Origin: Oscillatoriales cyanobacterium USR001
GTDB taxonomy: Bacteria > Cyanobacteriota > Cyanobacteriia > Cyanobacteriales > Microcoleaceae
NCBI GenBank assembly: GCA_001698425.1
Contig: MBRE01000042.1
Location: 13,519-37,518, forward strand
Direction of reading: 5' to 3'
DNA: 24,000 bases
Below the pieces are notes generated by a model, which ran no database searches, was not told the DNA's origin, and saw only the letters and a program-made list of their open reading frames with translations. The stretch's first letter is position 1. Each line of letters opens with the position of its first letter. Shown here in pieces: positions 15,738-24,000 of the stretch. A program made the position numbers and the translations under genes.

Positions 15738-15905
15738 ATGGCAATGACCTTATCACAGACTGCACAGTATCTCGATGATCGCGACTGGAAATACAAACTC
15801 AATATTGTTGAGTCTACAAAAAATTTTACCAGCCAGATGGATCGCTGGTTTTGTTGGAACAAGCGATTCCTGGCCGCAAGCAAAGAGGAATTAGTTGATG
15901 GTTAA
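15738..15905 (+). CDS. possible 55-aa small protein heading the sigma/DUF1822 cluster
   Basis: ATG...TAA frame found by hand and below the ORF-track cutoff: MAMTLSQTAQYLDDRDWKYKLNIVESTKNFTSQMDRWFCWNKRFLAASKEELVDG. It looks more protein-like than the overlapping antisense ORF 15641..15883. Confidence 0.3.
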   Translation: MAMTLSQTAQYLDDRDWKYKLNIVESTKNFTSQMDRWFCWNKRFLAASKEELVDG

Positions 15906-15949
15906 ATTGATTTACTTTTGGGCTAATACCAATTGTTGTGAGGATAAAG

Positions 15950-17566
15950 ATGATGCAAATTAGGAAACGGGAGAGTCTGGAGGAAATGTTTTCAACTTTC
16001 CTCAACTTTAAAAGCCAGACTCAATATCTTTGGCAAGCTAATCGGAAAGCAGAACAGAATGTCAAAACAAGAATTCTGTTAAACCCAACTGCTAGCGAAA
16101 GAGATTTGGCTGAAGACTGGCTGAATGAATATCTTGAATCTTTGTCAGATCAGCCTAACCAAACGGCTTTGTCAGATGATCCTAGCCAAACGCCTAGATT
16201 TCATTTAGCAGCCTATTTTGAGGACAGTTGCTTTTGGATTGCCCAGAAAATAGCAGAAAAGCGAGCGGGTAAATCATCCCATTTATACTTGTTTCAAGAA
16301 TACTTTCAAATTGCCAGAAGCATAGTTGCTGAACCAAAGAAGATTCTGGATGGATACGACACTAGCCGCAGTAATAGCCCAAAAAGTGTCAAAAACTGGG
16401 GTCAGTTAAAACTCACAAGTGCTATCTTGGAAAAGATAGGTGAAAAGACCTATTCAGATGCTGGAATGCTGAGGCGGCAAACTAAAACTTCGATGAAAAA
16501 AGTTTTACAAGAAGAGGGGATTACTTTGCTGTCAGAGGGATTATTAAAAAGGTTGGATATCAAAGAAACCCAACTAGCACGCTGTGTTCTAGCCTGGGAA
16601 AGTTTTCAGAGAGTTTATACTCCTAGTACGCCTAAAGGGAGGAGGCAACTTTTGTGGCCTGATACCGAGTACCTGAAAAAGATTGCTGATGAATACAATC
16701 AGCAAGCAATAGAGCATAAACTCACCCCCTCAATGACTGCCCAAAACCTTGATGAATTACTAAAAACCTGTGTTAAAGCTTTACGAAATAGTAGCGAAAA
16801 TCAGATGTCTGATCTGGATGTTCAAGAAATGATTTATGAAGCTGAAACAAGGTCTAAGCAGAATTCTCAAGAAATGATTTATGAAACTGAGGCAGGAATT
16901 GAGGAGCTTGAGAATACAGAGATTGGAGAATGTCTATCAAATGCCTTTACCGCCCTACCGAAAGAGGCTCAAATCATGTTAAGACTTTGGCATGGTTTAG
17001 GATTTAATCAGGGTGATGTTGGCGAGTTGTTTGGCATTGAACGGAATCAAATTGCTAACACAGTAAAAGGTTGGCGTAAATTTTTGTTACAGGAATTGAA
17101 CAAATATTTAGGTAAGCCAATGACGACTCAAGAAATTAAGCAGAAATCAAAAAAAATGGATTTGTGGTTGGAGGATTATTGCAGAGATGATTTCGTCTAT
17201 TTTTTATCCAATACCCTTAACAATGAACTCAATGGCGATGTAGAACTGTTACAAAAGTGCTATAACAAGGGTAAGTTTGATCTGAAGGCTGGAGCTAATT
17301 ACCTAAAAATCCCCGAATCTGAAGTCAGTCAAAGAATTGAGAAACTTAAGGTTCAACTGGGATATCGATTGACAGACTATGTGAGCAGTCAATTAACAGC
17401 AGAGGTGGATAAAATTCTACATGAAACCTTGAGTACAAAAAATTTAGCAAAAACATTGACTGTAGATTTAGTCAATCAAAGACTAGCTGAATTTTTAGAT
17501 GAAAACAATCAAGACATCGCTAAATTTGTTGAAGAATGGTTGACCAAAAACAGAGCGGGGGTATAG
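15950..17566 (+). CDS. divergent sigma-70-family-like protein (long form)
   Basis: The track ORF starts at GTG 15938. ATG 15950 has GAGGA 5 nt upstream. A region-4-like HTH, LPKEAQIMLRLWHGLGFNQGDVGELFGIERNQIANTVKGWRKFL, spans nt 16934-17095. A region-2-like segment is LFQEYFQIARSIV...WGQLKLTSAILEKI. A second HTH-like segment, AGANYLKIPESEVSQRIEKLKVQL, spans nt 17243-17371. Confidence 0.55.
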   Translation: MMQIRKRESLEEMFSTFLNFKSQTQYLWQANRKAEQNVKTRILLNPTASERDLAEDWLNEYLESLSDQPNQTALSDDPSQTPRFHLAAYFEDSCFWIAQKIAEKRAGKSSHLYLFQEYFQIARSIVAEPKKILDGYDTSRSNSPKSVKNWGQLKLTSAILEKIGEKTYSDAGMLRRQTKTSMKKVLQEEGITLLSEGLLKRLDIKETQLARCVLAWESFQRVYTPSTPKGRRQLLWPDTEYLKKIADEYNQQAIEHKLTPSMTAQNLDELLKTCVKALRNSSENQMSDLDVQEMIYEAETRSKQNSQEMIYETEAGIEELENTEIGECLSNAFTALPKEAQIMLRLWHGLGFNQGDVGELFGIERNQIANTVKGWRKFLLQELNKYLGKPMTTQEIKQKSKKMDLWLEDYCRDDFVYFLSNTLNNELNGDVELLQKCYNKGKFDLKAGANYLKIPESEVSQRIEKLKVQLGYRLTDYVSSQLTAEVDKILHETLSTKNLAKTLTVDLVNQRLAEFLDENNQDIAKFVEEWLTKNRAGV

Positions 17567-22043: not shown

Positions 22044-22051
22044 TAACAGTT

Positions 22052-24000
22052 ATGAAATTACGAAGAATTAGATTAAATAGGATTATTTGCATTTTAGCGA
22101 ACTTCTTCACATTTTTTTTCTTGCCTTTAGTGGTTTCTAACTTTGGTATCCAGACTTTTGCTCAAACGGTAGAGGAACGGGAAGCAGAAGCAAACCAACT
22201 ATTTCAGCAAGGGATTAAACAAGCTGAAAATCATCAATTAAAAGAGGCAATACAGTCTTTAGAATCAGCTTTAAAAATTTATCAACAATTTAATAAACGT
22301 CAAGAAGAGGCGAAAATCTTAGTTAATTTAGGTGTTCTTAATATTGCTATTGAGAATATAGAATTAGGGTTAGAATATCTTCAGCGTAGTTTAGCTATTG
22401 CTCAAGAAATTAATGATCCAACTATGGTATCTGTTGCCCAACAAGGACTATCAGCTTTTGAACAATTTAAAAAGCAATTTACTGATCATAAAGCTATTGC
22501 TTTATTAACTAGGGTATTCTTTGGTTATTCAACAACAGAAGAAGCTAAAGGACTAGCAAAAATATTTGATGAGTTATGTGTAGATAATTTTCATCATAGT
22601 CAATTTAAAATTGCTTTACAGCATTGTCAATCTTCCTTAGCTATCTATCAACAAATAGGAGATAAACTTCAAGAAGCAAATGCTCTAACTTCTATTGCGA
22701 CATTTTATTCTATTATGGGAAACAATAATGAGGCTTTACAATTACAGCAACAAGCATTAGCCATTTTTAATAAACTTAATGATGTAAGAGGTCAAATTAT
22801 TGCTCTTAATGGAATAGCAAAAATATATATAGAACAATCTCAATATAATCAGGCCTTAGAATTACTACAACAAGAATTAGAAAAACTGAAACAATTTGAT
22901 AATCCTAAAATAAAAACAATGGTTTTAGGAAATATTGGTTTAGTTTATCAATCCTTAGAGCAATATACTCAAGCATTAGATTATTTTCAACAAGCTTTAA
23001 CAATTGTTAAGCCACTCAATGATTTAGATTTTGAGGGAAAATTGATTAATAATATTGGTAGTGTTTATTTAGAACAACTTAAATATCAAGAAGCCCTAGC
23101 TTTTTTTAAGGAAGGTTTAGTAATTGCTCAAAAACAAAATAATCCTGAAAATCAAGCACAATCATTAGTTAATATTGGTGAAGCCTATCGTCGTTTAGGT
23201 GAATTATCTAAGTCTTTAGATTATTTTCAACAAGCTCTAAAGATAGTGAAACAAATTAATATTCGATTTGATCAAACAACGATTCTTAATAATATAGCGA
23301 TAGTCTATGAAAGCCAAGGAAAATATTTTGAAGCTCTACAAACTCATCAAGAATCGTTAAAAACAGCCCAAGATTTAAATGATTTATCTGGTCAATCTCA
23401 TATTCTTAACAATCTAGGAGTTTTATATGCTGAAATGGGTGAGTGCGATCAAGCATTACAACATTATTTAAATCAATCTTTACAAATTGCGAAAAAGGCG
23501 GGTTTAACATCTTTAGAAATTAAAACTAATATCAATATTAGCCTTTGTTATCGGAGACAAAGAAATTATTCACAGGCATTGGAATCGCTAAATCAAGCCT
23601 TATTTTTAGCAAAAAAAATAGATCGTTTAGATTTAGTATCTCAAACTTTAATTGGTATTAGTGCTATTCAAGAAAGCTTAGGACAATATCCTCAAGCTAT
23701 TGATTCAGCTAAGCAGGCTTTAGAAATTTTAGAAAAAATCAATTCTTTGGAATCAAAAAGTTTAGCATTAGGTATATTGGGAGAGATTTATCAAGCACAA
23801 GGTCAGTATAAAATAGCTTTAAATTATTTAGAACAAGCCTTATCTATTCAGCAAAAAATAGAGTCTAAATCCAACCAAAGTAAAACTTTAAATTACAGGG
23901 GATATAGTTTCTTACAATTAGGTCAGTTAGAAAAAGCCGAATCATCTTTATTGGAAGCAATTCAGATCAGAGAATCTTTGCGTACAGGGTTAACTGATAC
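22052..24000 (+). CDS. exported tetratricopeptide-repeat protein, 3' end outside window (TPR-CHAT type suspected)
   Basis: Not in the ORF track because no stop is reached. I translated the frame by hand from ATG 22052 to 23998 with no stop. The N-terminus is MKLRRIRLNRIICILANFFTFFFLPLVVSNFGIQTFA. More than 12 TPR-like units follow (...YxxALxxxQQALxI...). The last codons, LLEAIQIRESLRTGLTD, resemble the helical lead-in to CHAT domains, but the CHAT domain itself is not visible. Confidence 0.8.
   Translation, partial: MKLRRIRLNRIICILANFFTFFFLPLVVSNFGIQTFAQTVEEREAEANQLFQQGIKQAENHQLKEAIQSLESALKIYQQFNKRQEEAKILVNLGVLNIAIENIELGLEYLQRSLAIAQEINDPTMVSVAQQGLSAFEQFKKQFTDHKAIALLTRVFFGYSTTEEAKGLAKIFDELCVDNFHHSQFKIALQHCQSSLAIYQQIGDKLQEANALTSIATFYSIMGNNNEALQLQQQALAIFNKLNDVRGQIIALNGIAKIYIEQSQYNQALELLQQELEKLKQFDNPKIKTMVLGNIGLVYQSLEQYTQALDYFQQALTIVKPLNDLDFEGKLINNIGSVYLEQLKYQEALAFFKEGLVIAQKQNNPENQAQSLVNIGEAYRRLGELSKSLDYFQQALKIVKQINIRFDQTTILNNIAIVYESQGKYFEALQTHQESLKTAQDLNDLSGQSHILNNLGVLYAEMGECDQALQHYLNQSLQIAKKAGLTSLEIKTNINISLCYRRQRNYSQALESLNQALFLAKKIDRLDLVSQTLIGISAIQESLGQYPQAIDSAKQALEILEKINSLESKSLALGILGEIYQAQGQYKIALNYLEQALSIQQKIESKSNQSKTLNYRGYSFLQLGQLEKAESSLLEAIQIRESLRTGLTD
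22976..23000 (+). repeat. intragenic DNA repeat between TPR units (second copy 23216-23240)
   Basis: ttagattattttcaacaagctttaa versus ttagattattttcaacaagctctaa: 24/25 identical, 240 bp apart (two TPR units). Confidence 0.7.

Follow-up and report, generated by a model that had tools for sequence, protein, structure and literature searches.

A cyanobacterial caspase-CHASE2 locus with a dedicated sigma-like factor and DUF1822, and its frequent association with putatively exported DUF928 and TPR-CHAT proteins

The window analysed here, a 24,000-nucleotide (nt) stretch of contig MBRE01000042.1 from Oscillatoriales cyanobacterium USR001, ends in a row of five co-directional genes; the sigma-like and DUF928 proteins encoded there are 100% identical to proteins of this organism. 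This locus is very probably a cyanobacterial EACC2-caspase signalling or conflict system, of a subtype with a dedicated divergent sigma-70/extracytoplasmic function (ECF)-like factor, a DUF1822 protein and a CHASE2 sensor. Many EACC2-caspase loci also carry an exported cassette of DUF928 and a TPR-CHAT protease, joined in many relatives by two-partner secretion (TPS) genes. The way in which the parts would act together is a more tentative matter, and to a circuit that runs from CHASE2 and DUF928 to the caspase, and by proteolysis to the sigma factor, we give slightly less than even weight. The genes and the sensor domains are as follows (aa, amino acids).

15950 to 17566, + strand: divergent sigma-70-family (ECF-like) factor, 538 aa, from ATG 15950 (or GTG 15938) to TAG 17566 (TIGR02937, family profile)
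17569 to 18756, + strand: DUF1822 protein, predicted cytoplasmic, 395 aa from ATG 17569 to TAA 18756, or 406 aa from the alternative ATG 17536 (PF08852, E 2e-92)
18778 to 21207, + strand: CHAT-CHASE2 sensor, from ATG 18778 to TGA 21207
18778 to 19287, + strand: N-terminal constant domain of the sensor, aa 1-170 (phmmer; position and description match EACC2)
19288 to 19812, + strand: caspase-fold (CHAT) domain of the sensor, predicted cytoplasmic (PF12770 match at aa 186-331, E 6.6e-12)
19951 to 21207, + strand: transmembrane (TM) helix (aa 392-417), extracytoplasmic CHASE2 (aa 411-736) and C-terminal TM helices (aa 741-800) of the sensor (PF05226, E 1.4e-66; Kyte-Doolittle)
21204 to 22043, + strand: DUF928 protein, predicted exported and a predicted CHASE2 partner, 279 aa, from ATG 21204 to TAG 22043 (PF06051, E 5.7e-61)
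22052 to 24000, + strand: TPR-CHAT protein, of which the first 649 aa from ATG 22052 are visible before the window ends (TPR_12, E 1.5e-77)

The five genes are spaced by 2, 21, -4 and 8 nt, in that order. The sigma-like gene and the DUF1822 gene meet at a 2-nt gap (TAG 17566, ATG 17569) that a start at ATG 17536 would turn into an overlap, and the sensor and DUF928 genes share an ATGA overlap at 21204-21207. A preliminary description made from the letters of the window had claimed this co-directional layout with its coordinates and junctions, the DUF1822, CHAT, CHASE2, DUF928 and TPR domains, complementary cellular locations of the products, and a catalytic His/Cys dyad in the sensor. The layout was recovered in every detail, Pfam matches were obtained for all five domains, hydrophobic segments on the Kyte-Doolittle scale agree with the predicted locations, and the dyad is present. 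A scan of the window for promoters and terminators gave matches no more frequent than in shuffled sequence, so it is from the spacing alone that a single operon is read.

We examined whether the gene set recurs by scanning one genome per species with a DUF1822 alignment, which recovered at least 589 relatives, and we annotated the best 80 loci (homologous loci compared with the window carry L-numbers below). These 80 loci are cyanobacterial save for one probably mis-binned metagenome-assembled genome (MAG) and one MAG labelled 'uncultured bacterium'. The preliminary description had staked its proposal beforehand on synteny of these genes in other genomes, and the same gene order indeed recurs in dozens of them. 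The sigma gene lies directly 5' of the DUF1822 gene, on the same strand, in 68 of 72 evaluable loci (and elsewhere in the locus in two more), and a protein with the N-terminal domain and a caspase is encoded directly 3' of DUF1822 in 67 of 70; this caspase protein bears CHASE2 in 56 of 66. Both the sigma factor and the caspase sensor have DUF1822 as their constant partner. Within 10 kb, DUF928 is found in 25 of 41 loci (directly downstream in 18), TPR-CHAT in 15 of 41 and a TPS-domain protein in 17 of 41. Filamentous cyanobacteria in general have many CHAT, TPR and TPS genes, and the DUF928 and TPR genes could in principle stand beside an unrelated triad of sigma, DUF1822 and sensor genes by chance; this explanation is effectively refuted by the synteny counts, including that for DUF928, and by the recurrence of the five-gene order in distant lineages. 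The exact order is found on a plasmid of Picosynechococcus PCC 7003 (L101) and on Nostoc flagelliforme pNFSY07 (L094), and the five-gene order is seen also on Anabaena cylindrica pANACY.04 (L095). The sigma and DUF1822 pair on a Flavobacteriales MAG contig (L030) has open reading frame (ORF) lengths equal, and scores near-equal, to those of a Pseudanabaenaceae MAG (L031); this occurrence is probably a binning error and not a non-cyanobacterial one.

The components have diverged to different extents, with a median identity to the window proteins of 65% for the caspase domain, the most conserved part of the operon, about 45% each for DUF1822, the EACC2-like domain and CHASE2, 38% for DUF928 and 23% for the sigma factor. 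The N-terminal domain of the sensor (170 aa) is fused to a caspase in about 70 loci (phmmer), and it matches EACC2 by position and by the description of Kaur, Iyer, Burroughs and Aravind (2021, eLife; PMC8195603). In that paper, EACC2 proteins are described as having a constant N-terminal alpha+beta domain, a caspase and a highly variable C-terminus, CHASE2 among others, and a neighbourhood of EACC2-caspase, ECF sigma and DUF1822 is reported from computation only. The window shares with these systems the caspase His-Cys dyad, CHASE2 with its TM helices and the adjacent ECF sigma and DUF1822 genes. Catalytic H229 (CAT 19462-19464, in an AGH motif) and C272 (TGT 19591-19593, in an NSC motif) are invariant in 80 of 80 aligned homologues, an invariance that predicts an intact and active protease. 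The C-termini of the homologues consist of CHASE2, nSTAND1 with WD40, an ANF-receptor/periplasmic-binding domain, CVNH, or nothing. The sensor is a swappable part on a constant core, in agreement with what PMC8195603 says of the variable C-terminus. A PDB sequence search with the CHAT-CHASE2 protein gave no match, and membership in the HetF cell-division CHAT proteases was rejected (NF045509 equivalog, 23.1 bits against a cut-off of 1200).

The preliminary description had called the product of the first gene sigma-like, a label that stands at the level of the family. TIGR02937 is matched by 31 of 33 sigma-family homologues (best E 9.4e-31), and a PDB search with the family profile finds SigF/FliA region 4 (E 4.7e-7); because of this family-level evidence, the window protein is, judged from its relatives, a divergent member of a real sigma-70/ECF-like family. 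Pfam models of region 4 match 13 (Sigma70_r4) and 11 (r4_2) of the 33 members. For region 2, Sigma70_r2 is found in just 4 of 33 at E 0.002 and the PDB match to region 2 of SigF is weak. The window protein itself has no Pfam match; TIGR02937 aligns with its aa 92-383 and is covered from model position 8 to the last, 165. The N-terminal extension of the protein (about aa 1-85) is conserved and precedes a sigma2-like region; a long insert then separates regions 2 and 4, the latter a sigma4 helix-turn-helix (about aa 325-385), and a variable C-terminal extension follows. A Kyte-Doolittle scan detected no hydrophobic segment in it. The sigma factor is the fastest-evolving component, which would fit a need for orthogonality, since at least five genomes are represented by two or more copies in the best 80 loci. 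Within its variable insert, in a poorly conserved segment, the sigma gene carries a 27-bp tandem duplication at 16140-16192 (LSDQPNQTA / LSDDPSQTP). Short DUF1822 variants (305-385 aa) are preceded in some loci by small proteins of 217-365 aa that are related to each other (L093:2738-3490, L094:2020-2673, L101:1036-2133) and have faint similarity to ECF sigma factors (TIGR02937 E 0.0022 for that of L101); as a weak lead, they may be a minimal sigma subtype.

The DUF928 protein has an N-terminal hydrophobic, signal-peptide-like segment (aa 5-23, Kyte-Doolittle). Its Pro-rich linker is variable, a GAPG-R-G...R..C motif is conserved, and a CC motif lies at the C-terminus; a role of the Arg-rich motif as a processing site for the neighbouring protease would be pure speculation. 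The linker, a poorly conserved segment, contains a 21-bp duplication at 21295-21337. DUF928 tracks CHASE2, and not the caspase or the sigma factor. Among DUF1822 loci it is present in 25 of 37 of the CHASE2 type against 0 of 4 of the non-CHASE2 type (Fisher p 0.018, small n). In a sample of 22 cyanobacterial plasmid loci found by DUF928, a CHASE2 protein adjoins DUF928 in 16 and is present in the locus in 18, while a CHAT protein is found in 16 and a TPS protein in 12; the DUF928-linked CHASE2 module is an EACC2-caspase with DUF1822 in 8 of the 22. Other modules that adjoin DUF928 are a triple TIR fused to CHASE2 (L097:3663-6845, - strand), a CHAT-TIR protein plus bare CHASE2 (L096:4399-6884, + strand), an AAA_35-CHASE2 protein (L098:4544-6862, + strand) and a bare CHASE2 behind an RsbV/RsbW/PP2C partner-switching set (L089:4390-7858, + strand). 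The DUF928-linked CHASE2 of L104 has a response-regulator neighbour, and Nostoc punctiforme pNPUN01 (L085) has only a variant system of CHAT-CHASE2 and DUF928 with Trypco2 and WD40, without sigma or DUF1822. The tie between DUF928 and CHASE2, together with the frequent TPR-CHAT neighbours, is consistent with a function outside the cytoplasm, at the sensor or close to it.

Because the window ends inside the fifth gene, the CHAT domain of its TPR protein is inferred from the collinear locus L099 (89% nucleotide identity to window 15318-24000), where the counterpart is a 1121-aa TPR and CHAT protein, 74% identical over 647 aa. The protein at the same position in L081 is an 833-aa TPR-CHAT protein (CHAT E 1.8e-80). 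A signal-like hydrophobic segment at aa 11-29 (Kyte-Doolittle) suggests that the TPR-CHAT protein is probably exported. It has diverged further from L099 (74% aa identity) than has DUF928 (91%), and the GC content of window 22001-24000, within the TPR gene, is 30% as opposed to 40-45% in the four preceding genes. No TPS-domain protein or ShlB/FhaC transporter is visible before position 24000, and none lies 3' in the collinear L099. Single proteins in which an N-terminal TPS domain is fused to TPR and CHAT are encoded in two other loci (L047:3285-8156, - strand; L103:6642-11987, + strand), which indicates that TPR-CHAT proteases can be two-partner-secretion passengers.

These fusions bear on an explanation in which DUF928, TPR-CHAT and the TPS proteins belong to the output of the circuit and not to its input: the sigma factor would transcribe their genes, and they would serve as exported effectors or surface proteins. 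Proteases that can be secreted passengers resemble toxins and adhesins in this, and within 10 kb TPR-CHAT and TPS proteins occur in only 15 and 17 of the 41 loci, often on the opposite strand. DUF928, however, stays by CHASE2 where there is no transcription factor, as beside TIR-CHASE2 (L097), CHAT-TIR with CHASE2 (L096) and AAA_35-CHASE2 (L098), and in the window its gene overlaps the sensor gene by 4 nt. Since DUF928 persists beside such CHASE2 proteins, a place on the side of the input, as a partner of the sensor, is favoured over one on the side of the output, which we consider unlikely.

On the input reading, the circuit that we tentatively propose would run as follows. CHASE2 would read an extracytoplasmic cue, with DUF928 as its periplasmic partner, either a co-receptor or the precursor of a ligand; the signal would cross the membrane and activate the cytoplasmic caspase domain (H229/C272); and proteolysis would release the dedicated sigma factor, until then kept inactive by DUF1822, to transcribe a specific response. 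Candidate substrates of the caspase are DUF1822, the extensions of the sigma factor itself, or the sensor. A sigma gene followed, as here at a 2-nt gap, by the gene of its partner is the usual layout of sigma and anti-sigma factors. We know of no established ligand for CHASE2, a widespread sensor domain, nor of an assigned function for DUF1822 or DUF928.

Much of this has been proposed before. In the proposal of Kaur et al. (PMC8195603), a stimulus leads to (auto)proteolysis by the caspase, with the final step taken through transcription driven by the ECF sigma factor, and the orthocaspase literature contains caspase-CHASE2 fusions and a model in which a ligand acts through CHASE2 on the caspase (PMC7475262). 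The three-gene core and the idea of proteolysis leading to a sigma factor are thus already published, and the core inference of the preliminary description rediscovers a computational hypothesis; its remark that no function had been shown for the gene set agrees with our full-text literature searches. Term searches of the main text of PMC8195603 returned no mention of DUF928, hemagglutinin or two-partner secretion. One paper mentions a CHASE2 and DUF928 neighbourhood in passing (PMC5587647); otherwise the CHASE2-DUF928-(TPR-CHAT/TPS) cassette was not found in the literature and is added by the present analysis.

Several results weigh against the circuit. The score of the window sigma-like protein against TIGR02937 is 31.9 bits (E 9e-8), under the NCBIfam cut-off of 42.9, and its AlphaFold2 (AF2) model, built on a 12-sequence alignment, is unusable for a fold search, with a predicted local distance difference test score (pLDDT) of 49 and a predicted template modelling score (pTM) of 0.31. 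The DUF1822 profile matched no PDB sequence at E <= 1, and a Foldseek search with its model gave nothing below E 0.01; the weak matches are generic beta-sandwiches, and Csx30 and anti-sigma domains are not among the 50 matches listed. Conservation of DUF1822 is double that of the sigma factor (45% against 23% identity), which would be unusual for a dedicated anti-sigma factor and points to the EACC2-caspase as the main conserved partner of DUF1822. Of the 37 CHASE2-type loci, 12 have no DUF928 within 10 kb, so that it is not obligatory in cis. The PADLOC defence library lacks models for four of the five proteins and returned only generic TPR matches, and full-text literature searches turned up no experiments on DUF1822, DUF928 or the gene set.

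It was on DUF1822 that the preliminary description had placed the regulatory step, as a cleaved anti-sigma or Csx30-like partner, and gene order was all that spoke for this claim: no PDB sequence match, significant Foldseek match, TM segment or PADLOC match was obtained for the protein. Besides PF08852, DUF1822 has no family match in Pfam or NCBIfam, and a Kyte-Doolittle scan detected no TM or hydrophobic segment in it; neither a classical anti-sigma domain nor a TM anchor was found in this gene 3' of sigma (DUF1822 scans, PDB, hydrophobicity). A Csx30-like identity was rejected for lack of a PDB sequence match or a significant Foldseek match. In the AF2 model of DUF1822 (pLDDT 70) the N-terminal domain is alpha+beta, the middle part helical and the C-terminal part a beta-sandwich, whereas Kaur et al. 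call DUF1822 a TPR protein (PMC8195603). Four loci of Calothrix and Dulcicalothrix (L024, L034, L038 and L041) contain, at about 1.8-7.4 kb of each locus and directly 5' of a complete sigma/DUF1822/caspase-CHASE2/DUF928 system, an extra pair made up of an EACC2-caspase with an ANF-receptor/periplasmic-binding C-terminus and a convergent DUF1822 gene on the opposite strand, without a sigma gene of its own.

DUF1822 might instead be an adaptor or scaffold that bridges EACC2 and the sigma factor, with the caspase cleaving itself off the membrane or trimming the N-terminal extension of the sigma factor, in analogy to the processing of pro-sigma E and K in Bacillus. This would be in keeping with the conservation of the first 85 or so residues of the sigma factor, where R7, F14, S15 and W28 are near-invariant in a family otherwise about 23% identical, with a DUF1822 as conserved as EACC2 (45%), and with the pairs of DUF1822 and EACC2-caspase that have no adjacent sigma gene of their own in L024, L034, L038 and L041. 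Activation by autopeptidase activity is also proposed by Kaur et al. (PMC8195603). No cleavage site could be predicted, however, and the complete system that adjoins each of those pairs includes a sigma gene, which may be shared. We regard the adaptor explanation as somewhat unlikely, and retain the release of the sigma factor from DUF1822 as our tentative preference.

CHASE2, DUF928 and exported TPR-CHAT (with TpsA and TpsB in some loci) may also be seen as a modular trans-envelope surveillance cassette that acts as a relay of two proteases. The exported caspase-family protease would then turn DUF928 or a secreted TpsA into the ligand of CHASE2, and CHASE2 would fire whichever module is attached to it, the caspase followed by DUF1822 and sigma here, and TIR, AAA or partner-switching modules elsewhere. 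We hold this extension to be decidedly doubtful.

The region 5' of the operon contains the following genes.

3510 to 5435, - strand: type IV secretion system (T4SS) coupling protein of the TrwB/TraG type
7513 to 10920, + strand: CHAT, NACHT and NCH2 protein (a caspase fused to a STAND NTPase), 1135 aa
11301 to 12458, - strand: DDE transposase
12734 to 14161, - strand: gene of the TnpB/IS605-OrfB type

The T4SS coupling protein, the CHAT-NACHT protein, the DDE transposase and the TnpB-type gene place the operon in a mobile or variable region, and many homologous systems are plasmid-borne. The CHAT-NACHT protein is a second conflict-type caspase protein, whose gene stops 4.8 kb before the first feature of the operon; the GC skew of the window peaks (0.355) at 9001-10000, within this gene. 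No RNA genes, tRNAs or clustered regularly interspaced short palindromic repeat (CRISPR) arrays were found in the window (Rfam, tRNA and tandem-repeat scans), nor any Cas domains among its ORFs of at least 100 aa. A further explanation is a cell-death or abortive-infection device: a triggered caspase would degrade many proteins, and sigma and DUF1822 would merely tune expression. The mobile-looking position 4.8 kb 3' of the CHAT-NACHT gene, the many plasmid copies, the TIR, STAND with WD40 and Trypco2 parts of immune or conflict systems that occupy equivalent positions, and the orthocaspase cell-death model (PMC7475262) would all suit such a device. The near-obligatory and tightly coupled sigma gene (68/72) argues instead for a transcriptional output, and four of the five proteins have no match in the PADLOC defence library, and we consider a cell-death device improbable.

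The logic of the proposed circuit, in which a protease gates a dedicated sigma factor, has precedents in Craspase-Csx30-RpoE and CalpL-CalpT-CalpS, as cited in PMC12642450. In type III-E Craspase, gRAMP (Cas7-11) with TPR-CHAT (Csx29) cleaves Csx30, which releases the ECF sigma factor RpoE. The likeness lies in the control of a dedicated ECF-type sigma factor by a CHAT protease by way of a partner protein, here proposed from the genes, and in the presence of TPR-CHAT in the locus. Unlike Craspase loci, the window has no CRISPR array or Cas genes, and DUF1822 has no sequence or fold similarity to Csx30; moreover, TPR-CHAT is here signal-like and probably exported, it would be the CHASE2-fused protease that faces the sigma factor, and the trigger would be a membrane sensor and not RNA. 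In the type III CRISPR system CalpL-CalpT-CalpS, a Lon-type protease activated by cOA4, a cyclic oligoadenylate (cOA), cleaves the anti-sigma factor CalpT and frees the ECF sigma factor CalpS. With this system, cited in PMC12642450, the present locus would share a conflict context and a three-part logic that leads from a sensor-protease through an intermediary to a sigma factor, whereas the protease fold and the SAVED/cOA sensor are unrelated, and no homology to CalpT was detected.

Systems of the RseA-DegS-RseP type resemble the proposal in that an envelope signal leads to proteolysis and to a dedicated sigma factor, with translationally coupled genes for the sigma factor and its partner; they differ in that DUF1822 is soluble, without a recognisable anti-sigma domain, and in that the caspase is fused to the sensor in place of a site-1/site-2 pair. 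Two-gene EACC1-caspase systems (Kaur et al. 2020, PMC7159879) likewise combine a caspase that has a variable sensor region with a 'constant component', and activation of EACC1 modules by site-specific proteolysis has been shown experimentally (PMC12642450). EACC1, however, is a separate protein with a single TM segment that acts as a death effector, while the present locus has its constant domain in one protein with the caspase and, apparently, a sigma factor as output. EACC2, DUF1822 and CHASE2 are not mentioned in PMC12642450.

Upstream of the sigma gene, the preliminary description had suggested a possible leader ORF of 55 aa. This was refuted, as the ORF belongs to the remains of a longer gene that is intact in relatives.

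15672 to 15905, + strand: decayed remnant of a 248-aa gene, which holds the 55-aa ORF at 15738-15905 (tblastn)

Residues 44-87 of the 248-aa protein of L081 align to window 15672-15803 with 68% identity and residues 228-248 to window 15833-15895 (tblastn), with an internal deletion of about 394 bp between the two parts. The intact gene lies directly 5' of sigma in the close relatives L081-L083 and in L001 (L081:202-948; L001:1-606), and has decayed in both the window and L099; its protein has no family assignment. Between the window and L099, the 55-aa ORF has 3/3/3 differences at first, second and third codon positions, hence no sign of selection on it, and with this lack of a codon-position bias in a gene remnant, a leader-peptide role was rejected.

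To our knowledge, no EACC2-caspase system has been tested experimentally. Tractable hosts are available in Anabaena/Nostoc PCC 7120 (plasmid alpha, NC_003276.1, about 335.7-341.9 kb), in Picosynechococcus PCC 7003 (plasmid NZ_CP016476.1, about 197.5-206.2 kb) and among strains with Nostoc plasmids, of which several carry the system, for example N. flagelliforme pNFSY07 (L094). If the circuit is true, conflict-type systems would offer a third independent instance of a sigma factor gated by a protease, besides Craspase-Csx30 and CalpL-CalpT, and the first of them to be triggered from outside the cell. The pairing of CHASE2 with DUF928 is a concrete and testable candidate for a CHASE2 binding partner. 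Should the surveillance cassette prove true, it would connect events at the cyanobacterial cell surface, or contacts, with immune-type effectors, and would give CHASE2 its first defined protein partner.

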